The notes: generated by a model from the letters alone, not told the origin. A stretch of 64,000 nucleotides of DNA from an uncultured Elusimicrobia bacterium (GCA_964482515.1 CAYZXT010000001.1:169373-233372), one strand, 5' to 3'; numbered from the stretch's first letter, positions 457 through 22,247 are shown. Numbers and translations are program-made.

Positions 457-923
457 AGAAAATCCGGGGGACTTTGGAGAATACACATCGCCCCGGATTG
501 GGGAACAGAGGGTTTACGTTGGTGGAAATGCTGCTCGTGGTGATCATCATTTCCACTCTGGCCGCCATGATCGTGCCGCGCTTCGCCGGGCGATCCGAGG
601 AGGCGAAAACGGCCGCCGCCGCGGCGGACGTGCGGGCCAACCTCGCCGCCGCCCTGGACCTCTACGAATTGGACAACGGCTTGTATCCCACGACGGCGCA
701 GGGGCTGGCCGCCCTTAAATCCGCTCCGACCTCCGCGCCGATGCCGAAACGATGGCGCGGCCCCTATTTGAAAAAGAACTCCCTCTCCGATCCCTGGGGA
801 AACCCCTACGTCTACCGGTCGCCGGGTTCGCACAACGCGGCGGACTACGATCTGTTTTCCACCGGGCCGGACGGCGCGGAAGGGAACGGTGACGATGTCA
901 CCAATTGGGACGAGCGTGGATAA
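453..923 (+). CDS. gspG: Type II secretion major pseudopilin GspG
   Basis: Prepilin leader then G/FTLVEMLLVVIIIS (class III signal with Glu+5). Conserved GspG core (AAAADVRANLAAALDLYELDNGLYPTTAQGLAAL...WRGPYL...DPWGNPYVY). ATG 453 overlaps gspF stop (ATGA). Confidence 0.93.
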   Translation: MKKIRGTLENTHRPGLGNRGFTLVEMLLVVIIISTLAAMIVPRFAGRSEEAKTAAAAADVRANLAAALDLYELDNGLYPTTAQGLAALKSAPTSAPMPKRWRGPYLKKNSLSDPWGNPYVYRSPGSHNAADYDLFSTGPDGAEGNGDDVTNWDERG

Positions 924-1392
924 GAAATGGCAAAGGGGTTTTACGTTGATTGAACTTGTTTTCGTGGTCATGCTTCTCGGCGTTTTCCTCGGGATGGCGG
1001 CGCCGGTCTTTCGCGGAGCCTACCGGGCTGTGGCTTTGGATGTGGCCGCGGACAGGTTGGTGGGATTGCTGGCCTACGGCCGGGAGCGGGCGGTCATGGA
1101 ACGTTCCCGGCTCCGGCTGGAAATTGATACCGCGACGGGATCTTATCGTCTTTTGCTGGAAGATCCGTCGGCGCCGGGAGATTTCCTCCCTTTGCGCGAG
1201 AGTATTGGGCGGGGGATATTGCTCCCCGCCGGTACGGTCCTGGAACCCGGCCGTCCCTATGTGGAGTTCCTTCCGGACGGGACGGTCGACGAAGGTTCCC
1301 TGACGATCAAGGGGGCGATGAACGACGTCCGGCGGATCGATTGGGATTCCCTCACCGGCAACGCGAGGGTCCATGATCCGGCGCGGGGCTGA
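916..1392 (+). CDS. gspH: Minor pseudopilin, GspH-like (prepilin N-terminal cleavage/methylation domain)
   Basis: Motif QRG/FTLIELVFVVMLLGV. Position directly after gspG. ORF track starts at ATG 889, but in-frame GTG 916 gives a canonical short leader (MDKKWQRG/FTLIE) and overlaps the gspG stop by 8 nt; start choice uncertain (889 or 916). Confidence 0.7.
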   Translation: MDKKWQRGFTLIELVFVVMLLGVFLGMAAPVFRGAYRAVALDVAADRLVGLLAYGRERAVMERSRLRLEIDTATGSYRLLLEDPSAPGDFLPLRESIGRGILLPAGTVLEPGRPYVEFLPDGTVDEGSLTIKGAMNDVRRIDWDSLTGNARVHDPARG

Positions 1393-1690
1393 GGGTTTCG
1401 TGCTGCTGGAGGTCTTGTTGTCCGCGTTGATTCTGACCGTGGGCGTGTTCGCCCTGTTCGGATCGTTCTCGTCTGCGCGGCGGATGGCGAAGGCGGAGGA
1501 GGAATGGACGCGGGCCGTTTTCCTCCTGGAAGCCGGGACTTGGGCATGGGAGAAAACCGGGAAGTGGCCGCCTACCGATGGAAACCTGCGCCACGACGAG
1601 GTTCAGGATAAATCCGCGCGGCGCGGAACCCTCTTCGTCCGCCTGTCGCCGGACCGGAACGATGAATTGTCTTTGTCGGCGTACCGATGA
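1373..1690 (+). CDS. gspI: Minor pseudopilin, GspI-like
   Basis: Leader MIRRGAEG/FVLLEVLLSALILTV (prepilin motif) in a ~105-aa protein. Size and position after gspH match GspI. Confidence 0.65.
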   Translation: MIRRGAEGFVLLEVLLSALILTVGVFALFGSFSSARRMAKAEEEWTRAVFLLEAGTWAWEKTGKWPPTDGNLRHDEVQDKSARRGTLFVRLSPDRNDELSLSAYR

Positions 1691-2265
1691 GAAAAAATGC
1701 GGAAGGCTACACGCTCGTGGAGTTGTTGATCGCCCTGGCCGTTTTTTCGGCCCTCGCCGCGTCCTTCGCCGTGGCGCTGCGGCAGGGGTTCCATTCCTGG
1801 AAGATGCAAAGGGAGGATCAGCTTCGCCGCCAGGAGGCGAGGGTTGTCTTGAACCGGCTGGCACGGGATCTGCGGAACGCCGTCCCGCTCGCGAAGGAAA
1901 GTTTCATCGGTTCGGAGCGGGAAATCATTTTCCATAGACCCGAGGAGAACGGGATCGTCCGCGTCCAGTATCGCCTGTCGGAGAATCACGGGAACACGGT
2001 CCTGGAACGCCGGCATCAGTTCCTGTCGCGGGAAGGGAACGGAACGCCGGTGCGGCGCGCCACGATTTCGTCGTCGATGAAAGTCCATTGGGAATTCGCC
2101 GCTAAATCCCCGGAAAACGGAGAGATTATTTGGCGGCGGAAGTGGACGGACGGCGATGGCTTCCCCTTGGGGATGCGCGTCCGGCTCGAGCTTCCGTCCG
2201 CGGACGGGCGTGCGCCGCCGGTCGTTTATCAGCGGATTTTGGATTTCCCCTTGGGAGGGACATGA
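1687..2265 (+). CDS. gspJ: Minor pseudopilin, GspJ-like
   Basis: Leader MRKNAEG/YTLVELLIALAVFSAL (prepilin motif). ~190 aa. ATGA overlap with gspI stop. Confidence 0.65.
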   Translation: MRKNAEGYTLVELLIALAVFSALAASFAVALRQGFHSWKMQREDQLRRQEARVVLNRLARDLRNAVPLAKESFIGSEREIIFHRPEENGIVRVQYRLSENHGNTVLERRHQFLSREGNGTPVRRATISSSMKVHWEFAAKSPENGEIIWRRKWTDGDGFPLGMRVRLELPSADGRAPPVVYQRILDFPLGGT

Positions 2266-2266
2266 C

Positions 2267-3130
2267 ATGGCGCGGCGCCGGAACGAAACCGGATCGCTCC
2301 TCATCATCGCTCTATGGGCGCTGCTCGTTGTGGGACTGCTGGCCCTGGGCGTTTCCCACGGCGCGCGGTTCGCGCTGCGGCTGACGGAATATCAGCGGGA
2401 CGAGATACGCCTGACCCAGGGCGCCAAGGCGGCCGCGGCTTTTTGCGCGGGAGTCGTGAGCGAGGAGGGTCCGCCGGTGACGGCCTTGAACCAGCCCTGG
2501 CGGGCGGACTTCAGCCGCGGCGGAGACCATCCCATTCCCGGCGGCTCGTTCACCGTCCACGGTTTCGGGTTAGTCGATGAAGAAGGGAAAGTCAATCTGA
2601 ACGAAGCGTCCGCCGGGGAGTTGAATCGGATTTTCGAAAACGAGCCGCGCTGCGTCGTTTCCGTCCAACAGCAGCGGCTGTTCAGCGTGTCGGAACTTCG
2701 GGCTCTTCCGGGCATGACCGTGGAAGCCTACGAGCGGATCAAGGACGCCGTGACGGTACACGGTTCCGGGCGGATCAATATCAATACCGCGGGCGCGAAG
2801 ACCTTGGAGTTCCTGGGGATGAAAAAACCCCTCATCGGCAAAATCATGAATTTTCGCGGCGGGCCGGACGGAATCAACGGGACGGCGGACGACGGTGTCT
2901 TTCGAAACCTCGCGGGCATGGCGGGCGAACTGGGGGCGCGCGTGGTTCTGACAGACGAGGAAAGGGCCGTGCTTGCGGAGCTTCTAAGTCGCGGCCGGTT
3001 AACGGTGAGGTCACGGGTTTTCGCCGGAGATTTCATCGTCCGCCTCAGCGACAGCCGCGCTATCCGGCGCTGCCGCGTGGTCTTCGACGCCGAGAGCGGC
3101 AAAATCCTTTCCTGGCGGGAGGAGCCGTGA
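2267..3130 (+). CDS. gspK: Type II secretion minor pseudopilin GspK-like
   Basis: In-frame ATG 2267 one nt after the gspJ stop. N-terminus GSLLIIALWALLVVGLLALGVSHGARFALRLTEYQRDE is typical of GspK. Helix-hairpin-helix-like region (SELRALPGMTVEAYERI). The longer ORF-track start 2156 overlaps gspJ and was not used. Confidence 0.75.
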   Translation: MARRRNETGSLLIIALWALLVVGLLALGVSHGARFALRLTEYQRDEIRLTQGAKAAAAFCAGVVSEEGPPVTALNQPWRADFSRGGDHPIPGGSFTVHGFGLVDEEGKVNLNEASAGELNRIFENEPRCVVSVQQQRLFSVSELRALPGMTVEAYERIKDAVTVHGSGRININTAGAKTLEFLGMKKPLIGKIMNFRGGPDGINGTADDGVFRNLAGMAGELGARVVLTDEERAVLAELLSRGRLTVRSRVFAGDFIVRLSDSRAIRRCRVVFDAESGKILSWREEP

Positions 3131-4542
3131 ACCATCGCGCCACCGGAATATTTTGGAACAGGCGGGGCGTGGCCGTGGCGGAGGTCGATAATTCTTCCTT
3201 TGCTCCGGTCGTGGCCAGGTGGGCTTGGGCCCCTTTCGAGACCGAATCGCTTGAGGGCCGGGCGCGGACGATCCATCAATTGTTCGTGGAATACAACTTC
3301 TCGCAAAAGACGGTCGTGGCCGCGCTGGCGCAAAAGGCCGCGCTCTTGAAAATCGTGACCCTTCCGGCGGCGTCGCCGGCGGACACCGCCTCCATGGCCG
3401 ACATTCAGGCGTGGAAACTGTTGCCTCTTTTGGCGGAGGAGCCGGAGTCCGGGTATGAGATTTTGGAGGAGAAGAGGACGGAGCGCCTCGTGGCTTTGAC
3501 CATCGCGCGGCGGGGAGAGACCGAGGATATCCTTTCGACGCTTTCCGCCGCGGGAGTCCGTCCGGAGAGCGTTGTTCCGGAGTTTTACGCGCTCCTGTTC
3601 GCTTCTTGCGGGAGAGCGCCGGCGGGCGACCTGGCCCTCATCCATACGGATGCGGAGCGGATGATCTTCGTTTGTTCGCGTCGGGAAAAAGTTTCCTTCG
3701 CCCGCGCCGTGGATTTCAATGGCGACGGGGATTCGCGCTATGACGATGAACGCATCCTGGCGGAGTGGCGCAAATGCGCTGGCGCGTTCGAGGGGCCGTA
3801 CGGCCCGGTGCGGATTGTTTTGGCGGGCGATGCCGCGGCTTTGCCTTACCTGAAGGAGCGGTTCCACAAGGAAACGGGTCTCCAGGTAGAATCTTCGGAC
3901 CCCTTTTCCATCGTCTCCCGCCTGGCGGGCGCGCCGGAAAACCTGGAGGGGCAAACCTGCGCGCTGGTCGCCCTCGGGGCGGCGATGTCCGCCGGGACAA
4001 CGCGCTTGAATTTCCTTCCCAGGGCGGAGAAGCAACGTCGCGCGAAAATCCTTCGCCTCCGGGAATGGGCGGGCGTGGCCGCGGCGGCTGTCTTTCTTTT
4101 CGCGTCTCTCGGCGTGGTTGCTTTCCAAAAGTCGCGTGAAATGAAACGGCGGCTGCAGATTATGGAAATGCGTCTCACTGTGCTGCGGCCGGAGGCGGTG
4201 GAGGCGGAGAAGATGCTGAAGGAAATCGCCCTCGCGCGGGCACGGCGGGATACCCGGGGAGCCGCGCTGGGCGTCCTGTCGGAGGTGAGCAAGACCATGT
4301 CCGCGGACGTCGCTTTGTCCGCGTTGGATTATGAGAAGGGAGAACGTGTGTCGATCCGGGCCGCGGCGCGGAACCTGTCCGCGGCGGCGTCCTGGGTCCG
4401 GCGCATCGCCCAGTCCGGAACCTTCCGAAGCGTGGAGCTGCGTTCCTCGTCGGTCCGCGAGGGCGCCGCAGGGGCCGTTGTGGACTTTCAGGCGGTGGGG
4501 ATCCTGACGCCGGGCGAAATGAATGAACTTACCCAGGGTTGA
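3127..4542 (+). CDS. gspL: GspL-like assembly protein (cytoplasmic PilM/actin-like domain, single TM, periplasmic PilN-like domain)
   Basis: GTG 3127 overlaps gspK stop (GTGA). Internal TM (WAGVAAAAVFLFASLGVVAF) follows a ~300-aa cytoplasmic domain and precedes a coiled-coil periplasmic part. Position in the F-G-H-I-J-K-L-M order. Confidence 0.55.
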   Translation: MNHRATGIFWNRRGVAVAEVDNSSFAPVVARWAWAPFETESLEGRARTIHQLFVEYNFSQKTVVAALAQKAALLKIVTLPAASPADTASMADIQAWKLLPLLAEEPESGYEILEEKRTERLVALTIARRGETEDILSTLSAAGVRPESVVPEFYALLFASCGRAPAGDLALIHTDAERMIFVCSRREKVSFARAVDFNGDGDSRYDDERILAEWRKCAGAFEGPYGPVRIVLAGDAAALPYLKERFHKETGLQVESSDPFSIVSRLAGAPENLEGQTCALVALGAAMSAGTTRLNFLPRAEKQRRAKILRLREWAGVAAAAVFLFASLGVVAFQKSREMKRRLQIMEMRLTVLRPEAVEAEKMLKEIALARARRDTRGAALGVLSEVSKTMSADVALSALDYEKGERVSIRAAARNLSAAASWVRRIAQSGTFRSVELRSSSVREGAAGAVVDFQAVGILTPGEMNELTQG

Positions 4543-5050
4543 TTTCTCCCGGCGGGAAAAAGTCGCGGCGGTTTCGGCGGCAACGGTCGTCTGCGTTTAT
4601 CTGCTTTGCCGGACGATGTTGTTTCCCGCGTGGGCGAGCTGGTGGATGTTGTCCGACGAGCTCTCCCTGCGCGAAGCAGAATTACGCAAAGCGCTCGCGC
4701 TGGCTCAATGGCGGGAGGATTTGATCGCGCAATGGAGGAGCATCGCCGGAAAGGAGACGTACTCCGCGCGCGGCGACCAAAACGCCATGGACCTGGTGCG
4801 GGACGCCGAATCCTGGGCCAAACGTTCGGGTGTGAAAATCATCGATCTGCGCCCGGTACGAGCCGAAGCTGCGGACAATCTTCATTCGACGGTCGGCGTC
4901 CATCTTTCGATCGAAGGAAGCTGGCCGTCCCTGGTACGCTTCCTGGAACGGGCGCAAAATGCCGGGCTGTCCGTGGAGTCGCTCCACATCCAACGTCCGC
5001 CCGACGGCGGACCAACGCTGTACGCGATGCTGTCCGTCGAAAAGATTTAA
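4523..5050 (+). CDS. gspM: GspM/PilO-like bitopic inner-membrane assembly protein
   Basis: N-terminal TM (AAVSAATVVCVYLLC), coiled coil, C-terminal alpha/beta domain. Last gene of the cluster before the terminator. Assignment is by position and architecture. Confidence 0.45.
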   Translation: MNLPRVDFSRREKVAAVSAATVVCVYLLCRTMLFPAWASWWMLSDELSLREAELRKALALAQWREDLIAQWRSIAGKETYSARGDQNAMDLVRDAESWAKRSGVKIIDLRPVRAEAADNLHSTVGVHLSIEGSWPSLVRFLERAQNAGLSVESLHIQRPPDGGPTLYAMLSVEKI

Positions 5051-7134: not shown

Positions 7135-7641
7135 ATGAAAGAAATTTTTTCCACGGAATTCATCTCGCGCGTTATTCTGATCGGCGCCGGCGCCACGGCG
7201 GTCATGGACCTTTGGGCGCTTCTGTTGAAACAGTTCGGGATCAAGTCTTTGAACTTCGCGTTCCTGGGGCGCTGGATCGGCCACCTTCCCCAAGGGAAAT
7301 GGATCCACGAGAGCATCGCCCAGTCCGCCCCGGTGAAAGGCGAGCTGGTGATCGGGTGGTGCGCGCATTATTCCATCGGGATCACCTTCGCCGCGCTTCT
7401 GGTTTCCGTGTTCGGCCTGGGATGGGCGCGGTCGCCGTCCCTGCTCCCGGCGCTGCTTGTGGGGGTTTCGACGGTGGCGGCTCCCTTGTTCATCCTGCAG
7501 CCCGGCCTCGGGCTCGGGATCGCGTCTTCCAAGACCCCGACGCCCGTTTTCAACGCCCTCAAGAGCCTCGCCACGCACACGGTCTTCGGGTTCGGCCTAT
7601 ACCTCGCGGCGCTCGTAGCGGCCAAGTTTATTCCTATTTGA
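7135..7641 (+). CDS. DUF2938-family integral membrane protein
   Basis: 168 aa, 4-5 TM segments. N-terminal GAGATAVMDLWALLLKQFGI and downstream HYSIGITFAALL, LLPALLVG match the DUF2938 family signature as I recall it. RBS AAAGGA 8 nt upstream. Confidence 0.6.
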   Translation: MKEIFSTEFISRVILIGAGATAVMDLWALLLKQFGIKSLNFAFLGRWIGHLPQGKWIHESIAQSAPVKGELVIGWCAHYSIGITFAALLVSVFGLGWARSPSLLPALLVGVSTVAAPLFILQPGLGLGIASSKTPTPVFNALKSLATHTVFGFGLYLAALVAAKFIPI

Positions 7642-7721
7642 ACGCTGTTGGATTCTAGTTGGCACTTTCCAAACCCTCCGCAAAACTGTTAACATGGTGC
7701 TCTGATTTTCAGTCGTAGAAT

Positions 7722-7820
7722 CTTGCCGCACTCGCGTCAGCGCCGCGAGTACAGGCAGGCGGGGCCAGATATCTAATACTTGCCGCACTTTTCGCAGGGC
7801 GAAAAGTACAGGCAGGCGGG
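7722..7820 (+). repeat. Tandem pair of ~43-nt units (period 57 nt) in the tRNA-Thr leader, each being cttgccgcac-[hairpin]-gtacaggcaggcggg
   Basis: Unit A 7722..7764 has stem actcgcg/cgcgagt. Unit B 7779..7820 has stem acttttcg/cgaaaagt. Flanks are identical and the stems are fully different but both self-complementary. Confidence 0.6.
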
Positions 7821-7844
7821 CCCCAAGAGGGCCCGAATACCCCT

Positions 7845-7917
7845 GCCGGGGTAGCTCAGCTGGTAGAGCAGCCGCTTCGTAAGCGGCAGGTCGTCGGTTC
7901 GATCCCGATCCCCGGCT
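7845..7917 (+). tRNA. tRNA-Thr (anticodon CGU)
   Basis: 73 nt. Acceptor GCCGGGG/CCCCGGC, D-arm GCTC-AGCTGGTAG-GAGC, anticodon stem GCCGC/GCGGC with loop TTCGTAA (anticodon CGT), T-arm GTCGG-TTCGATC-CCGAT, discriminator T. CCA not encoded. Confidence 0.9.
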
Positions 7918-7950
7918 TATTTTTTCAGACGTGAAAACATTAATTGTCTC

Positions 7951-9408
7951 TTGATGCAGGGCCGTAGGCATGGTATTAGTAATCGTATCCAAATGATCTT
8001 GCGGGAGATACCCATTAATCGATTGTTTTCGGCCAAACGCGGGCGATTCCGTTATCTGACGGCGTCGCTCGTTTTTTTTGCGGGCGCCCTCCATGCCGCT
8101 TCCCCGGGAGCGGACAGCTTTTCGTTCCTGAACATCTCGCCCTACGCCCGCTCCGCTGCTTTGGCGGACGCGACTTCCGCCTACGTCGGCGATACCTTCT
8201 CCGTTTATTCCAACCCCGCGGGCCTGGCCCACCTCCAGGAAAAATCCGCTTCCATCAACCACGTCAGCCATTTCCAGGGCGTGGCCTACGACAACCTAAC
8301 CTATATAATGCCCTACGGCCGCGGCGGGGTCGGCGCGAGCCTGGGTTACCTGCGTTACTCGGACATTCCCAAAACGACGTTCAATCCCTCGGCGACGGCC
8401 ACGGGCGCGGACCGTTTCACCCAGTCGGGCGACATCGACGCCGGCGACTACGCCGCCTCGGTCGCCTGGGGGTTCCGCCATAACAGCAACCTCGCGCTGG
8501 GGGCGAACTTCAAGCTCGTCCAGGAAACCCTGGACACCAAATCCTCCGTGGCCGCGTTGTTCGACGCGGGGGGGATCTACCGTTTTCCGCTCTACCGCCA
8601 GTGGCGCGCGGCCGCCGTGCTGCAGAACGTGGGCTACGCCACCAAATTCATTTCCGAGACGCCCGACGTCCCGACCCGGCTGCGCGGCGGGCTCTTCTAT
8701 TCTCCGGAGATGTGGGCCGACTGGTCGGGGGAACTTGTCTATAACCTGCACGGGAACCCGGAGGTCGCCCTCGGCGGGGAATTCAGTTGGCAGCAGACGG
8801 CTTTCCTGCGCGCCGGTTACCGCTACGGTTTCCGCGATGCGAAGCTCGGGGGATTGACGGGCGCGTCCCTGGGCGTCGGCCTGAAGGCCGGTTCCTTCCG
8901 GCTGGACTACGCATTCCTTCCCTTCGGTGATTTGGGGGATTCGCACCGGATCTCCCTCGGCTGGAGCTTCGGCTCGCCTCGGACCGGCCGTGCCGCCGCG
9001 GAGCTGAAGCGCCCCATCGCGGTTTCCGAATTCGAGGCTGAGAACGTTTCGCTCGAGGACGCCCGGACCGCCGCGGGCTATCTGCGCATGGAACTGGAGC
9101 GCAGCAGCCCCTTCCGCGTCATGAACGTTTACGAGATGCGCGGCACCCTGGCGCGCAAGGCGTTTTCGCCCGCGTCCTGCCCCTCGCCGGACTGCGCCGT
9201 CAGGATGGGCCGGGCCCTCAACGTCGACAAGTTGATCGTGTGCAGCCTGGCCCGCCGCAACGAAGGTTTCTTCATCACGGGCGATCTGGTGGACGTCGGC
9301 ACGGGCACCGTGGAGAGACAGGAAACGATCGCGATCGCCTCCGCGGACCAGCTTCCGACGGCGTCGCGCGACCTGGCCAAACGATTCTTTCCGCCCGTTG
9401 TCAGATAA
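7951..9408 (+). CDS. Outer-membrane beta-barrel protein (PorV/UPF0164-like N-terminal barrel) fused to a C-terminal ~130-aa periplasmic alpha/beta module
   Basis: Signal peptide (RFRYLTASLVFFAGALHA/AS). Barrel with alternating amphipathic beta-strands and a C-terminal aromatic residue before a linker. The first residues of the mature protein (SFLNISPYARSAALADATSAYVGDTFSVYSNPAGL) recall PorV/FadL-type barrels. The true start is probably downstream of 7951 (ATG 7993 or TTG 8023). Confidence 0.6.
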   Translation: MMQGRRHGISNRIQMILREIPINRLFSAKRGRFRYLTASLVFFAGALHAASPGADSFSFLNISPYARSAALADATSAYVGDTFSVYSNPAGLAHLQEKSASINHVSHFQGVAYDNLTYIMPYGRGGVGASLGYLRYSDIPKTTFNPSATATGADRFTQSGDIDAGDYAASVAWGFRHNSNLALGANFKLVQETLDTKSSVAALFDAGGIYRFPLYRQWRAAAVLQNVGYATKFISETPDVPTRLRGGLFYSPEMWADWSGELVYNLHGNPEVALGGEFSWQQTAFLRAGYRYGFRDAKLGGLTGASLGVGLKAGSFRLDYAFLPFGDLGDSHRISLGWSFGSPRTGRAAAELKRPIAVSEFEAENVSLEDARTAAGYLRMELERSSPFRVMNVYEMRGTLARKAFSPASCPSPDCAVRMGRALNVDKLIVCSLARRNEGFFITGDLVDVGTGTVERQETIAIASADQLPTASRDLAKRFFPPVVR

Positions 9409-9435
9409 GCGGCTTTTTGGTTAGATAGTCTCGCG

Positions 9436-12207
9436 ATGCAGGCCACCGAAACCGTTCCCGAACGCCATCCTTCCAATTACTTAGCGGATTTTTTTTCGCG
9501 CCTGGTCGGCTACAGCCTTCCCGTCGTTTATTTCCTCGTCACCGTTTCCTTCTATTTAAGGACCTACGATTCCGCCCAGATTAAAATCACCCTGACCCAG
9601 ATCGGCTGCACCATGGTGATCCTGTTTTGGTTCGCCCAACTAATCCTGGAAAAGCGCTGGCCGCTCCGGAAGGACGACCTGCTGCTCGCCGCGCCTTTCC
9701 TGGCGTCGCTGCTTTCGGGCACGGTATCGTTCCTGCAATCCTCTTTCCTCGCCGGCAGCGTGGACGAATACATCCGCCGCGTGCTTTACGTGTTCATGGC
9801 CCTGATCGTCATCGTCGAGTTCCGCGGCTGGGACCGCCACCGCCGCCTCATGCGCTGGTTCCTGGCGGCCTTCGGCGTGGTGGTGTTCTACGGGTTCGTT
9901 CAGTTCTTCGACACGCGGCTTTTCCCGCCGGGCCAGGGAATGGGCATCGATCCCTTCGTCTGGCGCTACGCCTTCGGGCTGCGTCCGTTCTCCAGCTTCG
10001 GCAACCCCAACTTCTACGGCAATTTCCTGGTGCTGATCACGCCCATCGTGCTGGCGATGTATCTGAGCCGGGGCGGGCAGATCCTGCGCCCCTACGCGCT
10101 CATCGGCCTTTTGATCTTTGTGGTCTTCGGCACGGACAAACTCTTCACGGGCGTATTCGGCAGCATCGACGCCGCGACGCGCGTTTGGATCGAGGTCGGC
10201 CTGGTCGCGGGCCTGGCCCTCTCGGCCGGTCTGGTGTGGTGGAAGACGCCGGGCGCCGGCGCTTCGGGCATGCTGATCTTCCTGGGCGCGCTCTTCGTCA
10301 ACCTGTACGCCACGGAAACAAAGGGCGCCTGGCTGGGTTTCACCGCGTCCCTGATCGGCACCACGGTCCTGGTCGGGTTTTTCTTCCTGGGGGAGAACGC
10401 GGGCCGGCTGGCGAAGCGGCTGTTCGCCGTGGCCCTCATCGCCGCCGTCGTCGGCGCGAGCGTGGTGTTCTATTATTCGCGGCGCCGCATCAATTCCGTC
10501 AACTTCCGGATCTTCACCTGGATCGGGACCTGGGAAATGATCCGCGACCAACCCATCCTCGGCACCGGCATCGGATCGTTCAAGTGGACCTATCCGGCCT
10601 ACCGCCGCCCGCAGATCATCCAGATCGAAGGGAAGTCCAACACCGAGACCGACCACGCGGAGGACGAGTACCTCGAGGTTTGGTTCGACGAAGGCATCGT
10701 CGGCATCGGGATTTTCTTCTGGCTGATCCTGATGGTGAGCGTGTTGGGCGTCCGCGCCCTCAAGACGCTGACCAAGCAGACGGCCCAGGGGCCGCCCGGG
10801 ACCAAGCACGGCGAGCGCGCTTTCAGCATCCTGGCGTTCCTGGCCGCCTACTGGGGCGGGCTCGTGCATTGGCTGATGGACGTTTCCATCCGCTTCGTTT
10901 CATCGGGCATTTATTCGTTCCTGTTGCCCGGCCTGGTGGTGAGCCTCGCGCGCAACCGTATCCCGGTGCGGCAGGACCCGCCTTCCTCCCTGGACCGTTG
11001 GGTGCGGCTCGGCCTCGTGGTCTTTTGGGCCGCGACGCTGTTAAGCTTTCAGATGAGCTTCGTCCCCGTGCTGGCCTGCTGCGGCGCCCTCTGGCTGCTG
11101 GGGGAAGTGCTGGAGATCCGCCTGACGCCCGAAGCCGCGTCCCCGTCCGAGACCGCGCCGGCGTCCGACCTTTTGCAGGAGGGACTGCGCGCCACGCGGG
11201 TTTGGCAGTTCGCCGCCATCCTGGCCGTGGCCGCGCTGTGGGGCTACGGGTTCAACGTGTTCCGGAATTTCTTCATGGCCGACGTCAACCACAACATCGC
11301 CATCTTCTTTTCCAAGCAGGGCATCTGGGCCAAGTCCCCCGAGTTCGACGCCGCCGTGGCGGGCTTTCCGCCGGACATGCAGCGCGAGTACAAGGACATT
11401 GGCGGCGCCGTCGAGCATTACGAAACCGTGGTGCGGCTGAACCCCTTCTTCCCCATGGCGCGCTATTTCATCGGCAACGTCTACAACGACTGGGGTTCGA
11501 CGGTCTATTCCCAAAGCGTGGACGCCCGCCAGAAGGGCAACACGGCCCAGGCCGACGCGCTGCAGAAACGGGCCGAGGACATGTGGCGCAAGGCCATCGC
11601 CACCTACGACCGCGTAAAAAAGTTTGCGCCGAACTATGTCCAGACCCACCACCAGGTGGGATTGGTGTATCTGAAGATGGGCGACATGGCGCGCACGCTC
11701 GGCCAGGAGGACAAGGCGAAAGAGCATTGGGCGAACGCCCTGAAAAATTTCGAGCTCTACCGCCAGCTCGACCCCGTCTTCCCGCCGAACCATTACCGCA
11801 TGGCCTACGTGCACTATTCCCTGCAGGACTACGATAAAGCCGAGGCGGCTTACCTGGGCGCGCTTCCCTACAACAAGATGACGCCGGACCGCAACGCGGA
11901 AACCTATTCGAACCTCGGGCGGCTGGCCTACATCCAGCTGGCGAACAAATATCCCAACGCGAAGCAATGGCCGAAGGATTCGCCGGAATTCAAGAAGACG
12001 ATCGAGTATTACAAGCTGGCCGTCTCGGAAGCCGAACGGGCCCAGGGCGTCAACGGCTCGGACCGCTGGGCGATGGATTCATTGAAGGGGATGGCGCTGC
12101 TGTACTCGCGGGCGGACATGGAGAAGGAAGCCGTTGAGATTTGGCACAAGATCCGCGCCCTCAACCCCGAGGACCCGGATGTGAAGAGAGTCTTCGGCAT
12201 CAAATGA
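9436..12207 (+). CDS. Polytopic membrane protein with Wzy_C (O-antigen ligase/polymerase-like) domain and C-terminal TPR repeats (paralog 1)
   Basis: About 12 TM helices. Conserved SFGNPNFYGNFLVLITP loop motif typical of Wzy_C/WaaL/PglL-type proteins. C-terminal ~330 aa are TPR-like (GNVYNDWG..., VGLVYLKMGD..., MAYVHYSLQDYDKAEAAY...). Confidence 0.75.
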   Translation: MQATETVPERHPSNYLADFFSRLVGYSLPVVYFLVTVSFYLRTYDSAQIKITLTQIGCTMVILFWFAQLILEKRWPLRKDDLLLAAPFLASLLSGTVSFLQSSFLAGSVDEYIRRVLYVFMALIVIVEFRGWDRHRRLMRWFLAAFGVVVFYGFVQFFDTRLFPPGQGMGIDPFVWRYAFGLRPFSSFGNPNFYGNFLVLITPIVLAMYLSRGGQILRPYALIGLLIFVVFGTDKLFTGVFGSIDAATRVWIEVGLVAGLALSAGLVWWKTPGAGASGMLIFLGALFVNLYATETKGAWLGFTASLIGTTVLVGFFFLGENAGRLAKRLFAVALIAAVVGASVVFYYSRRRINSVNFRIFTWIGTWEMIRDQPILGTGIGSFKWTYPAYRRPQIIQIEGKSNTETDHAEDEYLEVWFDEGIVGIGIFFWLILMVSVLGVRALKTLTKQTAQGPPGTKHGERAFSILAFLAAYWGGLVHWLMDVSIRFVSSGIYSFLLPGLVVSLARNRIPVRQDPPSSLDRWVRLGLVVFWAATLLSFQMSFVPVLACCGALWLLGEVLEIRLTPEAASPSETAPASDLLQEGLRATRVWQFAAILAVAALWGYGFNVFRNFFMADVNHNIAIFFSKQGIWAKSPEFDAAVAGFPPDMQREYKDIGGAVEHYETVVRLNPFFPMARYFIGNVYNDWGSTVYSQSVDARQKGNTAQADALQKRAEDMWRKAIATYDRVKKFAPNYVQTHHQVGLVYLKMGDMARTLGQEDKAKEHWANALKNFELYRQLDPVFPPNHYRMAYVHYSLQDYDKAEAAYLGALPYNKMTPDRNAETYSNLGRLAYIQLANKYPNAKQWPKDSPEFKKTIEYYKLAVSEAERAQGVNGSDRWAMDSLKGMALLYSRADMEKEAVEIWHKIRALNPEDPDVKRVFGIK

Positions 12208-14639
12208 ACCGCCCGCTTCGCCCGCCCGCGATCCTGTTCTGGGTCCTGGCGGCCATGCATCTCGTCTGTCCCCTGCTTTTTTTCACCGACCTCACCCGCA
12301 ATCCCTACATCACGCAGATCGCGCTGCTGAACGGCGGCGTTTGGCTCATGGTCCTGATCTACACGGTGGACGCCCTGCGCCAGGGACGGTTCACGTTCTG
12401 GCGGACGCCCCTCGACGTGCCGCTCGTTTTGTTCTTGGCGGCGGCGCTCCTGTCCTGGGGGTTGTCCTGGATCGACCATCCGCCCTTTCGTCTGCCGATC
12501 TGGAACGAAGGTTCTCGGGTCACGCTTTTCCTGATCGTGAACGGCTTGCTGGTCTACTGGTTTTCCGCGCAGCTGAAGGACCCGGTATGGGACCGGCGTC
12601 TGCGGTTCGCGGTCCTGTTCGTGGGCTTCGCGGCCGGCGGCTACGGCATATTGCAATACATGGGCGTGGAGTTCATCTGGCCCCAGGCCCTCAACCCCTA
12701 CAGCGGCCGTCCGGTGTCCAGCTTCGGCAATCCCAACTTCCTCTCCTCCTATATGATCATGCTTCTGCCCCTCTGCCTGGCCCAGGGCCTCGAGGCGAAA
12801 ACTTCTTTTGAGCGCTGGGGGGCGACGGCGCTCTTCCTGCTGTTTTCCGGCTCCGTGATCTCCACCTTCACCCGGTCGTCCTGGATCGGCGGAGCGGCGG
12901 GCGTGCTGATGTTCGCTTTCTTCGCGCGGCGGCAGTGGAAGAAGCACAAAGCCTGGGCGCTGGGCGCGGTCCTGGCGGCGGTGCTGCTGGCGGGCTTCTG
13001 GCCGTCGAGTCCCCTGGCTGGGCGCTCGACCCGTCCCCTGGACCGGTTGACGGAACTGTACCGCGGCGTCACCACGGAAAAATCCTACGGTTCCTGGCAC
13101 CAGCGCCTGCTGATCTGGTCCTGCGCCCTGGACATGGTGAAGGAACGGCCCATCGTCGGAAAGGGCTGGGGATGTTTCGAGCTCTTTTATCCTTTTTACC
13201 AGGGCGCTTACCTGACGGACGACGTCTTCCGGACCTTCCGCACCCACGCCAACAACGCCCACAACCTCCTCATGGAGTTTTGGTCCCAGACGGGTTTCCT
13301 CGGACTAGGGATTTTCCTGTGGATATGTTTCCTCTTCTTCGAACTGGCCCGGCGCCGGATCCCGGCGGTCCCCGAAAGCGAGCGCCTGCCGGCCTGGGCC
13401 TTCCTCTCGGCCGGCGCGGCGATGCTCGTGGACAATTTCTTCGGCAACGTCTCGCTGTTCTTCGCCGTGCCCGCGTTCCTGTTCTTCTGGATGATGGGAA
13501 GCCTGGGCCGTACCCTCTCTCCGTCGGACGTGCGCGTCGTTCCGTCCCGGGGATGGAAATCGCTGGTCGTTTGCGCGGCGCTGGTTTTGGTTTCGCTGTG
13601 GGGGATCGGCCACGCCTACCGCTACTGGCGGTCGGAGGTGGATTATTTCAGCGGCTTCAAAAAAGCCAAGCAGGGCACGCTGAAGGATTCCATCGACGTT
13701 CTGGAAAAATCCGTGGCGGTGCGCCGCTGGGAAGTGAACACCAACTATGAGCTCGCCAACGCCTACGCCCGCCAATCGCGCTGGGCCTCCGATAACCGCC
13801 TGCCGTCCGAAGCCAAGGCGTACGCGGAGAAGGCCCTCTGGGCCTACGACGAGGCTCTCGCCGCCAACGCGGGGTACGACGAAATATATTTCAACCGCGG
13901 CACCATGCAGAACCATATGGGGAAACGGGACGAGGCGGTGCTGAGCTACCGCATGTCGATCCTGATCAATCCTCTGAACGCCGAAGCCTACAAGGCCCTG
14001 GGGAACCTCTACCTATCGCGCGAGGAAGACATGCCGCGGGCCATCGAGCTTTTCAGCCGCGCGCTGTTTTTCTTCCCCCGGGACCGCGACCTTTGGAACA
14101 ACCTGGGCTTTCTCTACACGCGCTCCAAGGAAAACCAAAAGGCCCTGGACGCCTTCGTCGGCGCCCTGAAGGTGGACCCCCATTTCGACCTGGCCTGGAA
14201 GAATTTCCTGATCGCCCTTCACGCCCTGGGGATCAAAGACCATCCCATGCTGAAGCTGCCCGATCTTTGGGCGGAGATGCAGAAGGCGATTGATCAAAAC
14301 CGGCTGCCCGCGGCCCGCCGCGCCGCCGAAGAGCTGGCGAAGCTTGCGCCGGAAAGCGTGGAGGTCCACCTGCTTTTGGCCAACATCTGCGCGCGGAGCA
14401 ACGCTCCCGACGCGGCCCTCGGGAATTACCGGAAGGTGATCGCCTGGGAGCCCGGCCATGGGGAGGCGCGCCTGAACATGGGGAAAGTGCTCCTGACCCA
14501 GGGCCGGAAGGCGGAGGCCGCGCAGCTTTTCCACGCGTTGTCTCTGGAGCGACCCCAAGACCAGGAAGTCCGGCAACTCCTCCTCGCGGCCGGTCCCGCC
14601 GCCTTGCCTTTACAGCCCAAAAACGATCTAGTAGAATGA
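12204..14639 (+). CDS. Polytopic membrane protein with Wzy_C (O-antigen ligase/polymerase-like) domain and C-terminal TPR repeats (paralog 2)
   Basis: ATG 12204 overlaps the upstream stop (ATGA). Same architecture and same SFGNPNFLSSYMIMLLP motif as paralog 1. TPR region (ANAYARQS..., YFNRGTMQNHMGKRDEA..., YKALGNLYL...). Confidence 0.75.
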   Translation: MNRPLRPPAILFWVLAAMHLVCPLLFFTDLTRNPYITQIALLNGGVWLMVLIYTVDALRQGRFTFWRTPLDVPLVLFLAAALLSWGLSWIDHPPFRLPIWNEGSRVTLFLIVNGLLVYWFSAQLKDPVWDRRLRFAVLFVGFAAGGYGILQYMGVEFIWPQALNPYSGRPVSSFGNPNFLSSYMIMLLPLCLAQGLEAKTSFERWGATALFLLFSGSVISTFTRSSWIGGAAGVLMFAFFARRQWKKHKAWALGAVLAAVLLAGFWPSSPLAGRSTRPLDRLTELYRGVTTEKSYGSWHQRLLIWSCALDMVKERPIVGKGWGCFELFYPFYQGAYLTDDVFRTFRTHANNAHNLLMEFWSQTGFLGLGIFLWICFLFFELARRRIPAVPESERLPAWAFLSAGAAMLVDNFFGNVSLFFAVPAFLFFWMMGSLGRTLSPSDVRVVPSRGWKSLVVCAALVLVSLWGIGHAYRYWRSEVDYFSGFKKAKQGTLKDSIDVLEKSVAVRRWEVNTNYELANAYARQSRWASDNRLPSEAKAYAEKALWAYDEALAANAGYDEIYFNRGTMQNHMGKRDEAVLSYRMSILINPLNAEAYKALGNLYLSREEDMPRAIELFSRALFFFPRDRDLWNNLGFLYTRSKENQKALDAFVGALKVDPHFDLAWKNFLIALHALGIKDHPMLKLPDLWAEMQKAIDQNRLPAARRAAEELAKLAPESVEVHLLLANICARSNAPDAALGNYRKVIAWEPGHGEARLNMGKVLLTQGRKAEAAQLFHALSLERPQDQEVRQLLLAAGPAALPLQPKNDLVE

Positions 14640-14697
14640 AAATCGTCGTCGGCGGCCATGGCCGTCCGGCGATAAAATCCATTTAAGGGAGACATCC

Positions 14698-15450
14698 ATG
14701 TCGGGTCATTCGCGCTGGGCGGGTATTAAACATAAGAAGGGCGCTGCCGATGCGAAGCGCGGAAAGATTTTCACCCGGATCGTGCGCGAACTGTCCATCG
14801 CGGCCAAGATCGGCGGCGGCAGCCCGGACAACAACCCCCGGCTCCGCAAGGCCATCGATGACGCCAAGGCCGCCAACATGCCCTCGGACAACGTCAAGAA
14901 GGCCATCGCCCGCGGCACCGGCGAGATCCCGGGCGTGGTGTACGAGGAAGTCTCCTACGAAGGCTACGGCCCGGGCGGCGCGGCCGTTTATCTGACCGGC
15001 ACCACCGACAACCGCAACCGCACTTCCTCCGAAATCCGCAAGATTTTCAGCAGCCACAACGGCAACCTCGGCGCGCCCGGCAGCGTGGCCTGGATTTTCC
15101 AGTTCAAGGGCTATATTTCCGTCGACAAAAAGTCCTGGCCGGACGAGGAGAAACTGATGGGCCTCGCCATCGACGCCGGCAGCGAGGACTTCAGGTCCGA
15201 CGATGAGGAAGTCTACGAGATCATCACGGCGCCCGCCGATTACGACAAGGTCAAGGCCGCCCTGGACGGCGCCAAGGTCCCGATGTCGACCGCGGAATTG
15301 ACCATGCTTCCGAACACCTACGTGAAAGTCACCGGGTCGGAGGCCGAGCAGACCATGGCCCTGCTGGGCGAGCTGGAAGATTATGACGACGTCAAAGAAG
15401 TCTTCACCAACGCCGACATCCCCAAGGACGTCGCGGAAAAAGTTGGGTGA
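14698..15450 (+). CDS. yebC: YebC/PmpR-family probable transcriptional regulatory protein
   Basis: MSGHSRWAGIKHKKGAADAKRGKIFTRIVRELSIAAKIGGGSPDNNPRLR is a highly conserved YebC N-terminus. SD GGGAG upstream. Classic position before ruvC. Confidence 0.92.
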   Translation: MSGHSRWAGIKHKKGAADAKRGKIFTRIVRELSIAAKIGGGSPDNNPRLRKAIDDAKAANMPSDNVKKAIARGTGEIPGVVYEEVSYEGYGPGGAAVYLTGTTDNRNRTSSEIRKIFSSHNGNLGAPGSVAWIFQFKGYISVDKKSWPDEEKLMGLAIDAGSEDFRSDDEEVYEIITAPADYDKVKAALDGAKVPMSTAELTMLPNTYVKVTGSEAEQTMALLGELEDYDDVKEVFTNADIPKDVAEKVG

Positions 15451-19996: not shown

Positions 19997-21154
19997 ATGA
20001 CAACCACGACCGAACACATCTATAAGCTCCTCAAAAAAGACACCTCCTCCGCCGCGCGGCGAGGGGTCGTGGCGCTTTCCCACGGCACCGTGCAGACGCC
20101 GGTGTTCATGCCCGTGGGGACGCAGGCCACGGTGAAGACCCTTTCCAGCGAGGACGTGGAATCCCTCGGCTACGAAATCATTCTCGCCAACACCTACCAT
20201 CTTTTCCTGCGGCCCGGCATCGACATGCTGGAACAGGCCGGCGGCCTACACAAATTCATGAGCTGGGACCGCAACATCCTCACGGACTCCGGCGGGTTCC
20301 AGGTTTTTTCCCTGGCGAACCGTCGCCAGATCACGGAGGACGGCGCGACCTTTTCATCCCATGTGGACGGCGCGCGGCACGTGCTCACGCCGGAGAACGT
20401 GGTCCAGTCCCAATTGCGCATGGGCGTGGACGTGGCCATGTGCCTGGACGAATGCCCGCCCTACCCGGTGACCGAAGCCTCGGCCCGCGACATGATGGAG
20501 CGGACGTTGCGCTGGGCGAACCGCTGCCGCGACGCCTGGAACCAATGGACCGATGAAAAGAAATTGTCCGCGCCCGCGACCCAGCTTTTCCCGATCGTCC
20601 AGGGCGCGACCTATCCGCCGCTGCGCCGCGAGAGCGCCGAGCGCACGATCGAGATGGATTTTCCCGGGTACGCCATCGGCGGCCTGTCCGTGGGCGAGCC
20701 GCGGGACGTGCTTTTCGAGATGCTGAAGTCCAGTATCGCGCCGCTGCCGGAGGACAAGCCCCGCTACCTCATGGGCGTGGGGAAACCGGAGGACATTCTG
20801 GAGGCCGTGGCCTGCGGTGTCGACATGTTCGACTGCGTCCTGCCCACGCGCAACGGCCGAAACGGCCAGGCCCTGACCTGGAGCGGGCCCCGTAACCTGC
20901 GCAACAACCGTTACCGCACCGATTCCGGGCCCATCGACCCCGCCTGTTCCTGCCCGGTTTGCCGCCGTTATTCGCGCCGTTACCTCGCCCATCTGTTCCG
21001 GTCGGGCGAATATCTGGGTTTAAGGCTCGCTTCTTTACACAATTTGGCCTTTATGGTAGACTTCATGCGCAAAATTCGCGACGCGATCGAAAGCGGTTCC
21101 TTCGGCGAATTTCGGACGGATTTTTTGAAAAATTATCGATCGGATAATGATTAA
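19997..21154 (+). CDS. tgt: Queuine tRNA-ribosyltransferase
   Basis: HGTVQTPVFMPVGTQATVK, LANTYHL, TDSGGFQVFSL, and zinc motif CxCxxC...H (CSCPVCRRYSRRYLAHL). Confidence 0.93.
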   Translation: MTTTTEHIYKLLKKDTSSAARRGVVALSHGTVQTPVFMPVGTQATVKTLSSEDVESLGYEIILANTYHLFLRPGIDMLEQAGGLHKFMSWDRNILTDSGGFQVFSLANRRQITEDGATFSSHVDGARHVLTPENVVQSQLRMGVDVAMCLDECPPYPVTEASARDMMERTLRWANRCRDAWNQWTDEKKLSAPATQLFPIVQGATYPPLRRESAERTIEMDFPGYAIGGLSVGEPRDVLFEMLKSSIAPLPEDKPRYLMGVGKPEDILEAVACGVDMFDCVLPTRNGRNGQALTWSGPRNLRNNRYRTDSGPIDPACSCPVCRRYSRRYLAHLFRSGEYLGLRLASLHNLAFMVDFMRKIRDAIESGSFGEFRTDFLKNYRSDND

Positions 21155-22247
21155 ATCGGATTTTTTCCGGCGACGGGCTTTCCTATATATAGGAGGAACC
21201 GTGGCCGGACTTTTGCTCTTTACAGATGTCCACGCCAAGATGGGCAAGGATGTTTTTGAGGCCGCGCGCAAAGGGATAGAGCAGGCCCTTTCCAGCCAGA
21301 CCGCCAGCATCCGAGAGAAGGCCGCGGCCGCGCTGGGCGACGTCAACTTTCCCGACGAGACCCGGTGGCTGAAGCAGGCCATGGAAGACGCCAACGAATA
21401 TGTCCGCATTGCGGCGGCGCTGTCGCTGCAGAAAAAGGGGGACACTTCCGGCAAGGCCGTGCTCCAGGACATCCTGGACCATACGCCTCCATCCCAGGCC
21501 AAGAACCCCATCCTTCAACAGCTGGAGTCCATCGCCGTGGCGAACAAACGCGCCGCCGCCGTCCGCGCCCTCGGGCTTTTCAACGAGCCTTCGGTCGTGG
21601 CCATCGTGAGGCGCGCCAGCCGCGACGACGACGCCCGGGTCAAGGACGCCGCCGCCGTGGCTTTGGGTCGATTGGGCGACAAGACCCAGCTCATCGTTTT
21701 CAACGACGCGCTGAAGGACGAAGACGCGGGCGTGCGGAAAGCCGCCATGGACGCTCTGGCCGAGATCGCTTCGCCCGACAGCGAACGGCAATTTTTGACC
21801 CGATTGAAGGATTCTTCCGGCGAGGTTCGGCTCGCGGCCGTTCTTGGATTGCAGCGCCTGGGAGACCCCGACGTTTGGCGGCACATCGCGGCGCTGATCC
21901 ACGACAACAACGCCCGCGTGCGGGAAGAAGTGGCGGACACGCTCGGATCGTGCAAGCAGAAGGAAGCGATCCCGGTCCTGAAGATTTTGATGGAGGACGA
22001 CAACGGGTTCGTCCGGATGCGGGCCTGCAAGTCCCTGGCCCTGTTGGGCGACCGTTCCGGGCTGGTTTTCCTGCGGCAGGGCATCGTGAACGAGGACGCC
22101 GACCTTCGCATGCGCGCCGCGGAGGGGTTGGGCGCCTTCAGCGACGAGAAGGATTGGGCGCCCCTGACGGCTCTGCTGAAAGACGCGGACGAACGCGTCC
22201 GTTTGGCCGCTTCCCTGGCGGTTTGGAAAAAGGGAGCAGTTCGATAG
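21147..22247 (+). CDS. HEAT/PBS-lyase-type repeat protein with Tat-like N-terminal signal
   Basis: N-terminus FFRRRAFLYIGGTVAGLLLF...VHA/K resembles a twin-arginine signal. Then about 8 HEAT-like repeats (VRIAAALSL, ARVKDAAAVALGRLGD, AGVRKAAMDALAEI, VRLAAVLGLQRLGD...). ATG overlaps tgt by 8 nt. Confidence 0.65.
   Translation: MIKSDFFRRRAFLYIGGTVAGLLLFTDVHAKMGKDVFEAARKGIEQALSSQTASIREKAAAALGDVNFPDETRWLKQAMEDANEYVRIAAALSLQKKGDTSGKAVLQDILDHTPPSQAKNPILQQLESIAVANKRAAAVRALGLFNEPSVVAIVRRASRDDDARVKDAAAVALGRLGDKTQLIVFNDALKDEDAGVRKAAMDALAEIASPDSERQFLTRLKDSSGEVRLAAVLGLQRLGDPDVWRHIAALIHDNNARVREEVADTLGSCKQKEAIPVLKILMEDDNGFVRMRACKSLALLGDRSGLVFLRQGIVNEDADLRMRAAEGLGAFSDEKDWAPLTALLKDADERVRLAASLAVWKKGAVR

Follow-up and report, generated by a model that had tools for sequence, protein, structure and literature searches.

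Introduction

Studies of WaaL-fold enzymes usually concern one protein at a time, either one that ligates O-antigen to lipopolysaccharide (LPS) or one that glycosylates pilins. Here we describe two proteins of this fold, A and B, which are encoded side by side in a stretch of 64,000 nucleotides (nt), hereafter the window, from the metagenome-assembled genome (MAG) of an uncultured Elusimicrobia bacterium (phylum Elusimicrobiota; GCA_964482515.1 CAYZXT010000001.1:169373-233372). The module occupies positions 7951-14639 and comprises an outer-membrane (OM) β-barrel gene followed by A and B, which each join a Wzy_C membrane domain to a long C-terminal arm of tetratricopeptide repeats (TPR). Literature searches brought up no study of Wzy_C-TPR proteins from Elusimicrobia, and the annotation of A and B homologues goes no further than 'O-antigen ligase family protein' or 'tetratricopeptide repeat protein'.

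Among the closest described enzymes is WaaL (glycosyltransferase family GT121), represented by the Cupriavidus metallidurans protein (CmWaaL; PDB 7TPG/7TPJ), in which R191 binds a phosphate of undecaprenyl diphosphate (Und-PP) and H313 is the proposed acceptor-activating base. The same Arg/Arg/His positions are found in Escherichia coli WaaL (R215/R288/H338) and Neisseria meningitidis PglL (R224/R298/H349) (PMC3643930; PMC10920833). Within clan GT-C1, polymerases and the shape, elongation, division and sporulation (SEDS) proteins have Glu or Asp where O-ligases have His, plus one or two conserved Arg (Meitil et al., PMC10920833). PglL is separated from WaaL by the PglL_A motif (Schulz et al. 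2013, PMC3643930), and protein O-oligosaccharyltransferases (O-OTases) are typically encoded outside glycan loci (PMC3643930). C-terminal TPR motifs have been reported for PglL and for the S-layer O-OTase WsfB.

TPR arms also occur on glycosyltransferases with other catalytic domains. TfpW, the pilin arabinosyltransferase of Pseudomonas aeruginosa, is a GT-C pilin glycosylase with a periplasmic C-terminal TPR and has been proposed to polymerise as well as transfer. The eukaryotic TMTC1-4 are membrane glycosyltransferases whose TPR arm engages protein substrates; they are GT-C_A (ArnT/PMT-like) enzymes using monophosphate-linked sugars, and their catalytic domain is not homologous to that of A and B. 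In synthase-dependent polysaccharide export, TPR and barrel pairs form the periplasmic and OM parts. Finally, the cyanobacterial IctB proteins, which are ~470 aa (amino acids) long and single-copy in nearly all strains surveyed (PMC4594306), belong to a type of Wzy_C protein for which NPN[LF] is the diagnostic loop pattern (Pereira et al. 2015, PMC4594306).

Results

Two diverged WaaL-fold enzymes form a conserved pair

From their sequences, A and B appear to be two functionally diverged, catalytically competent WaaL-fold transferases that form a conserved pair, and we hold this with much more confidence than the full account of their function given in the Discussion. The WaaL-fold enzyme, the TPR repeats and the PorV-like barrel are each of a known kind; what is new is the fixed A/B pairing, the split between His and Glu in the two active sites, the long TPR arms predicted to be periplasmic, and conservation of the whole arrangement of the two enzymes across a phylum.

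The AlphaFold (AF2) model of B, with 25 homologues in the alignment, has a predicted local distance difference test (pLDDT) score of 90.4 and a predicted template-modelling (pTM) score of 0.87. Twelve transmembrane (TM) helices of the model match WaaL (GT-C_B fold), and a thirteenth at aa ~451-475 is preceded by a basic loop, RTLSPSDVRVVPSRGWK, which sits between the twelfth and thirteenth helices. The membrane-domain profile of B matches the sequence of the WaaL structure 7TPG (E 5.5e-9), and in the residue-level alignment R224, R301 and H353 fall on R191, R265 and H313 of CmWaaL. All three residues are invariant in 63/63 orthologues, as is H348. The periplasmic-loop catalytic residues on whose presence the initial annotation of this DNA had made its proposal of a glycan-transferring enzyme depend are therefore in place, and B reads as ligase- or O-OTase-like. 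Overall identity to WaaL is only 16%, and B differs from it in the extra TM helix, the ~330-aa TPR arm predicted to be periplasmic, and the NPN motif.

In the model of B the basic loops lie on the predicted cytoplasmic side, whereas the conserved motifs FFTDLTRNPY, GNPNF, TRSSW and DN--GNVS and the large catalytic loop lie on the predicted periplasmic side. The termini of WaaL are cytoplasmic. Because the thirteenth helix of B follows a WaaL-like 12-TM core and the basic loops fall on the cytoplasmic side, the TPR arm of B is predicted to be periplasmic.

Protein A does not have the Arg-Arg-His set, carrying instead K296, R358 and E409, i.e., Lys for the first Arg of WaaL and Glu for its His. 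Among A orthologues E409 is present in 53/54, and H407, two residues before it, in 54/54; both are held in an acidic loop, NTE-DH-E-E--E, that is invariant in the family. The residue pattern of GT-C1 polymerases is thus found in A (E409 in 53/54, R358 in 54/54) and not in B, which has His, and A reads as polymerase-like. By analogy with WaaL, K296 may contact the Und-PP phosphate. A shares the acidic residue at the ligase-His position and the conserved Arg with Wzy-type inverting polymerases and SEDS proteins, and differs from the Wzy-type enzymes in having a TPR arm and no Wzx/Wzz partners nearby. The direct alignment of A to 7TPG is weak (E 0.019, 12.6-17 bits, with 12.6 bits for the best stretch). 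The two proteins, which the initial annotation had taken together, are not equivalent: B has Arg-Arg-His (ligase/O-OTase) and A has Lys-Arg-Glu (polymerase-like). Beyond the core, three extra hydrophobic segments are apparent in A, by which its TPR arm would likewise reach the periplasm.

The A protein of the window also has a ~62-aa hydrophobic insertion relative to the A-family consensus (residues ~212-274; 10069..10257, + strand), apparently two further TM helices. Lengths within the A family range from ~750 to 1040 aa.

A and B are 24% identical, and the two family profiles align to each other with a probability of 100% (hhalign, E 5e-43). The description 'tandem paralogous' given by the initial annotation holds for their deep homology; however, at this level of identity and with each protein belonging to its own separately conserved orthologous family, they do not represent a local duplication. 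The GNPNF loop motif is invariant in both, and fits the NPN[L] pattern of IctB except for the F after NPN.

Searches of a large protein collection returned 666 homologues of B and 588 of A, and those with names, for either protein, are Elusimicrobia, Endomicrobiales or unclassified MAGs. The membrane domain of B has 125 relatives at E ≤ 1e-30 among 1.84 billion cluster representatives, and cluster look-ups of its distant relatives gave only the names 'Elusimicrobiota' or 'bacterium', or no name. By these searches the family is small and centred on one phylum. Across Elusimicrobia and Endomicrobia, orthologues are 31-60% identical for A and for B alike.

Gene neighbourhoods were counted in the best 80 of 316 loci with B relatives, taking one genome per species; the titles of these 80 are nearly all Elusimicrobia/Endomicrobia MAGs, with two 'bacterium' and one 'Candidatus Obscuribacterium magneticum'. 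Of the 62 loci with at least 3.2 kb upstream of B, which are those informative for pairing, 57 have an A-type gene immediately before B in the same orientation; the estimated median gap between the two genes in these relatives is ~22 nt. Taken with the 24% identity, the 57/62 adjacency indicates that the duplication giving rise to A and B predates the radiation of the phylum and that the genes have been coupled since. The A-B pair is an invariant unit conserved across the phylum, while the rest of the neighbourhood varies. One locus (L027, ~6.9-14 kb) carries three consecutive Wzy_C-TPR genes and then a further PorV-like barrel.

Gene layout

The barrel gene, A and B are three open reading frames (ORFs) on the + strand that run in the same direction (Table 1). 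The initial annotation had placed a barrel ahead of two Wzy_C-TPR membrane proteins of 923 and 811 aa, and all three ORFs are found as it described. Its estimate of ~330 aa of C-terminal TPR in each protein is borne out (aa ~610-923 in A and 478-811 in B, roughly 315-335 aa), as is the 4-nt coupling of the two Wzy_C genes, which can be read directly as ATGA, with the ATG of B at 12204 overlapping the TGA stop of A. The barrel ORF opens with TTG at 7951 and has its stop at 9408; the likely start is the ATG at 7993, which yields a signal-peptide-like N-terminus (MILREIPINRLFSAKRGRFRYLTASLVFFAGALHA, then ASPG). Spacing between the barrel gene and A is 27 nt. With a GC content at third codon positions (GC3) of 0.82-0.87 across the three ORFs and hundreds of full-length homologues (E = 0 to 1e-150), these are real genes rather than chance ORFs. 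Promoter and terminator scans of 7600..15000 gave nothing exceeding the shuffled expectation, so the operon boundaries are drawn from gene spacing alone.

Table 1. Positions of the module genes, their active-site features and two context loci within the window.
Feature	Position	Strand	Description
Type II secretion operon (context)	1..5050	+	gspF (cut by window end), gspG (453..923), pseudopilins, gspK-like, PilM/PilN-type gspL, gspM
Barrel gene	7993..9408	+	PorV/PorQ-family (FadL-fold) OM β-barrel; signal peptide and N-terminal plug helices
Protein A	9436..12207	+	923 aa; WaaL-fold GT-C membrane domain aa 1-~610, TPR arm aa ~610-923
A GNPNF motif	10000..10014	+	N190-P191-N192 invariant; loop equivalent to TM5-TM6 periplasmic loop of B, placed by alignment to B
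A K296 (TETKGAW)	10321..10323	+	Position of WaaL R191/B R224 (hhalign A vs B); K in 54/54
A R358	10507..10509	+	Equivalent to WaaL R265/B R301; 7TPG alignment; R in 54/54
A acidic loop motif NTETDHAEDEYLE	10639..10677	+	H407 equivalent to WaaL H311; E409 at the catalytic His, WaaL H313; 7TPG and B alignments
Protein B	12204..14639	+	811 aa; 12-TM WaaL-fold domain, 13th TM helix aa ~451-475, TPR superhelix aa ~478-800
B GNPNF motif	12726..12740	+	N176-P177-N178; TM5-TM6 periplasmic loop; invariant in 63/63
B R224 (TFTRSSW)	12873..12875	+	Equivalent to WaaL R191, which binds Und-PP phosphate; 7TPG alignment; R in 63/63
B R301	13104..13106	+	Equivalent to WaaL R265; 7TPG alignment; R in 63/63
B loop motif RTHANNAHNLLME with H353	13239..13277	+	Equivalent to WaaL H313, proposed acceptor-activating base; 7TPG alignment
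Short WaaL-like O-antigen ligase (context, outside module)	36386..37609	+	407 aa; Wzy_C 78.2 bits; no TPR, no NPN

Family placement of A and B

Both proteins exceed the Pfam gathering score for Wzy_C of 31.7 (A 63.2 bits, B 72.3 bits), and several TPR families exceed threshold in each. The best NCBIfam match of both is IctB (TIGR00947), which in B spans the entire membrane domain; the scores of 59.3 bits for A and 68.2 bits for B are far below the equivalog cutoff of 366.4. No polymerase family tested is as close to A in sequence as B and IctB are. When the membrane domains of A and B were searched as single sequences against PDB sequences nothing matched, and family profiles were needed. For the TPR arm, the top structural matches are OGT and SPY.

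A PglL/PilO-type identity had also been put forward as one possibility in the initial annotation. PglL_A (PF15864) has no match in A, B or the short WaaL of the window even at E ≤ 10, and because this motif is absent A and B are not members of the PglL/PilO family. They nonetheless resemble PglL/PilO (TfpO) in the Wzy_C domain, in the Arg/Arg/His set (B only), in being encoded outside LPS loci and in having pilus or secretion genes near in some loci; the differences, besides PglL_A, are the usual absence of an adjoining pilin gene, a far longer TPR and an obligate pair of paralogues. WsfB of Paenibacillus alvei and WsaB/WsaA of Geobacillus stearothermophilus, compared here by description, likewise either unite Wzy_C and a C-terminal TPR within a single protein or have a separate TPR protein encoded beside the Wzy_C enzyme, and act on a protein acceptor, but these are Gram-positive S-layer systems within glycan-synthesis clusters. 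With TfpW and OGT the likeness is that of a glycosyltransferase with a TPR arm engaging protein substrates. The catalytic domains of these two are not homologous to those of A and B: TfpW is a GT-C_A (ArnT/PMT-like) enzyme that uses monophosphate-linked sugars, and OGT is a cytosolic GT-B enzyme.

A separate WaaL in the LPS operon

The initial annotation regarded the two Wzy_C-TPR proteins as extra to the WaaL of the LPS operon and different from it, and the TPR-less WaaL is indeed separate from them (Table 1). It sits in an LPS-core operon with waaA, family GT4 glycosyltransferases, a deacetylase, a GT9 glycosyltransferase, lpxK, a gmhB-like gene, kdsA/B/D and an lptA-like gene; its flanking genes encode GT4, GT9, LpxK and a haloacid dehalogenase (HAD) phosphatase. 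The short WaaL is 25% identical to B over 226 aa (E 3e-6) and has SHPL at the NPN position. The A-B pair, unlike this WaaL, is encoded outside the LPS-core and O-antigen genes.

The barrel

The initial annotation described the upstream gene as encoding a barrel/periplasmic-domain OM protein; an OM barrel gene does precede A, and its type can now be refined to a plugged 14-strand FadL/PorV barrel (pLDDT 72 overall, 80-90 in the barrel part of the model). The protein exceeds the cutoff of NCBIfam NF033709, the PorV/PorQ family (136.9 bits vs 90), and falls below the equivalog cutoffs for PorV (44.6 vs 250) and PorQ (95.2 vs 220). None of the genes scanned within the 64-kb window matched type IX secretion system (T9SS) families. 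Compared with PorV/PorQ of T9SS and with FadL barrels, the window protein has an extra C-terminal α/β domain of ~125 aa (aa ~345-471; nt 9025..9408) that is found in few relatives only. Searched alone, this domain has no Pfam match and no significant family; its matches are a weak one to TolB_N, a faint one to CsgG in one homologue, and LpoB-like neighbours at an hhalign probability of 13%. A synthase-type exopolysaccharide (EPS) export porin was considered for the barrel and rejected, the fold being FadL/PorV and not that of a 16-18-strand open porin. BcsC, PgaA and AlgK/E, which serve synthase-dependent EPS export, combine such a porin with a GT2 synthase, and the module has neither.

Several minor observations concern relatives of this barrel. 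The C-terminal domain follows a CsgG/TolB_N/LpoB-like pattern, VAVxDF...G.F.V...C....A..G..L..DK...G, and a similar domain is found in two other loci (L018, 1177..2556, and L040, 6270..7742). In L085 (221..6390) and L003 (1..2194), PorV-like relatives are encoded right after large or giant proteins with weak matches to T9SS C-terminal domains (Por_Secre_tail, CHU_C), which hints at T9SS-like cargo-anchor pairs in Elusimicrobia-like MAGs. In three homologues (P0250, P0253 and P0255) a PorV-like barrel is joined to TPRs; Wzy_C genes are absent from the loci of all three, so these fusions give no Rosetta-stone support for contact between the barrel and the TPR arms of A and B.

Gene neighbourhoods

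In the window the flanks of the module are housekeeping genes, with rpsF-ssb-rpsR-rplI on the opposite strand, a DUF2938 gene and tRNA-Thr(CGT) upstream, and yebC-ruvC-ruvA-ruvB, spoIID, queA, tgt and yajC-secDF downstream. The barrel-A-B-yebC-ruvCAB order is the first of three contexts found among related loci. In the second, A-B is followed by a cluster resembling type IV pilus (T4P) or type II secretion system (T2SS) genes (ATPase, platform protein, pilin, PilO-like protein and secretin). In the third, seen in Endomicrobia, the order is LpoB-like lipoprotein, sugar epimerase, recR-like gene, A, B, secA and lnt; an NAD-dependent sugar epimerase gene lies upstream of the pair in five Endomicrobia loci only. 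Pilus and secretion genes near the pair, to which the initial annotation had drawn attention, are a recurring feature: the T2SS operon of the window ends 3 kb upstream of the barrel gene, and a T4P/T2SS cluster follows the pair directly in 17/80 loci.

The same annotation regarded adjacent Wzx/Wzz genes elsewhere as telling against its proposal. No Wzx, Wzz, initiating transferase or glycosyltransferase gene recurs near the pair in the 80 loci, nor is any among the families listed for a batch of 146 further neighbours, in which no family was seen more than four times. A classical Wzy-dependent O-antigen or EPS locus is rejected on these grounds.

In the Endomicrobia loci L030, L031 (143..742), L046 and L052, the gene three positions upstream of A-B encodes a lipoprotein with an LpoB domain (PF13036; lowest E in the batch scan 1.9e-42).

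Discussion

The reading we favour, tentatively and at somewhat less than an even chance, is that A and B are a conserved pair of WaaL-fold enzymes acting on Und-PP-linked glycans, A polymerase-like and B ligase-like, with periplasmic TPR arms that choose the acceptor, probably proteins. The pair would be the core of an envelope-glycosylation module of Elusimicrobiota, made up of co-translated inner-membrane GT-C enzymes similar to GT121, both of which would take their lipid-linked glycans at the periplasmic face. In B, the two arginines would hold the lipid diphosphate and the histidine would activate the acceptor, so that B transfers the glycan to its final acceptor. A would most likely elongate or polymerise the lipid-linked glycan, or else handle a second, chemically different acceptor. 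The additional TM helices, one in B and apparently three in A, would put a TPR superhelix of ~320 aa into the periplasm, where the arms would select and hold the acceptor. Candidate acceptors are periplasmic or surface proteins, most likely pilins, pseudopilins or PorV-bound surface proteins, and in those lineages that encode the barrel alongside, the TPR arms may also dock the PorV-type barrel.

Sequence cannot decide between a protein and a lipid or glycan acceptor, and a protein acceptor is what we infer from five observations. LPS ligation is already served by an enzyme of its own; O-OTase genes are typically found away from glycan loci; TPR arms of glycosyltransferases bind substrate proteins, as in OGT, SPY and TfpW, with TPR motifs also in WsfB and PglL; pilus and secretion clusters recur beside the pair; and the barrel is of the protein-binding PorV type, with PorV-like relatives encoded beside giant proteins that have weak matches to T9SS C-terminal domains. 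The presence of a TPR-less WaaL in the LPS operon, together with the lack of recurrent Wzx, Wzz or glycosyltransferase neighbours, also argues that the pair is separate from LPS ligation.

Several points weigh against this reading. Evidence on the acceptor and the glycan is indirect, A and B match no curated O-OTase model, membership of the PglL/PilO family is rejected, and among curated families the nearest in sequence is IctB. TPR domains also serve as polysaccharide-export scaffolds. The assignment of Glu for His in A comes from weak alignments to 7TPG combined with a strong A-B profile alignment. Among neighbours, the barrel lies directly upstream of A in 23-25/51 informative loci and is missing from the other half, most loci have no pilin gene adjoining the pair, and much of what does surround it (yebC-ruvCAB, secA, lnt, yajC-secDF) is synteny of housekeeping genes and may say nothing about function.

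A possible but less probable alternative is that A and B are the polymerase and the ligase of a second surface glycolipid or LPS-linked polysaccharide, of the O-antigen or anionic LPS (A-LPS) type; on this view the TPR arms would bind no protein substrates and would serve in the periplasm as a scaffold or a device for chain length, passing the product to the OM through the barrel. The polymerase-like residues of A and ligase-like residues of B suit this arrangement, and TPR plus barrel has its analogy in synthase-dependent polysaccharide export, with about half of the loci carrying the barrel gene just upstream of the pair. A lateral opening to the OM is a property of FadL/PorV-type barrels and would suit a lipid-anchored product. 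On the other hand, no Wzx, Wzz, initiating transferase or glycosyltransferase gene recurs by the pair; a dedicated WaaL is already present in the LPS operon; and the barrel, besides being absent from half of the loci, is a plugged 14-strand protein rather than a 16-18-strand polysaccharide porin.

It is unlikely that A and B are instead IctB-like proteins with a housekeeping role in the envelope, either recycling or modifying undecaprenyl-linked intermediates or associated with peptidoglycan, which transfer nothing to an external acceptor and whose TPR arms recruit partners in envelope biogenesis. IctB is their best sequence relative and shares the NPN[LF] loop, but the matches (59 and 68 bits) are far under the 366-bit cutoff, and the perfect conservation of the diphosphate-binding arginines and catalytic His of B argues for genuine transferase chemistry. 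IctB is not known to have TPR arms or an established function, so that the comparison explains little. The link through the NPN motif may be more informative in the other direction, as it suggests the hypothesis that IctB, a protein whose function has been open for decades, is an Und-PP-glycan transferase.

We give still less credence to an extended version of the favoured reading, in which A and B form a heteromeric polymerase-ligase machine whose TPR arms reach the OM and dock the PorV-type barrel, coupling attachment of the glycan to surface proteins or to an OM lipid with their delivery. In function, such a machine would parallel the attachment complex of T9SS (PorV/PorU/A-LPS), with unrelated enzymes and in a phylum from which T9SS is not known; if real, it could serve Elusimicrobiota as the general system for O-glycosylation or surface anchoring.

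Least probable is that only one of the two is an enzyme and that the other, altered in its catalytic site, serves a heterodimer as a regulatory or scaffold subunit in the manner of a pseudo-enzyme: A does depart from the canonical Arg-Arg-His, and strict pairing with translational coupling does suggest a complex, but the periplasmic loop is the most conserved part of A, its invariant array (R358, R390, R391, E398, N402, T403, E404, D406, H407, E411, E414 and D418) is usual for active or ligand-binding sites and not for degenerate ones, and polymerases normally have Glu at the base position.

Throughout a poorly known phylum, two deeply diverged copies of a WaaL-fold enzyme have been kept adjacent to each other, often beside a PorV-type barrel gene, one with the ligase base His and the other with the polymerase base Glu, and each with a large TPR arm. 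Should A and B prove to be a coupled polymerase and transferase in which TPR arms guide the choice of acceptor, they would constitute a compact natural glycoconjugation system and a first handle on surface glycosylation in Elusimicrobiota. They would also provide a natural experiment on the one-residue switch between His and Glu that separates ligase from polymerase chemistry in clan GT-C1.

Other features of the window

Between the DUF2938 gene and tRNA-Thr lies a tandem repeat (7723..7763 and 7780..7820, + strand) made of two copies of TTGCCGCAC-[hairpin]-GTACAGGCAGGCGGG. The pattern has 2 matches against 0 expected by chance, and the hairpin repeats at 7723..7820 match no Rfam family. The inner hairpins of the two copies differ, with fully compensating stems (CTCGCG/CGCGAG vs CTTTTCGC/GCGAAAAG).

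Within the conserved queA-tgt-yajC-secDF block, tgt and yajC are separated by an inserted gene for a 366-aa protein composed entirely of HEAT repeats (21147..22247, + strand; HEAT_2, E 7e-50). Downstream of the lptA-like and ABC ATPase genes, and flanked by ORFs without a family match, is a gene for a giant pilin-like protein of 1065 aa (52420..55617, + strand), whose sole Pfam match is an N-terminal prepilin methylation motif. Directly after the WaaL and gmhB-like genes, a 740-aa protein (38150..40372, + strand) has an ArnT/PMT-type GT-C membrane domain (PMT_2, PMT) and, at its C-terminus, an LmeA-like phospholipid-binding domain, making it a third periplasm-facing glycosyltransferase in the window.

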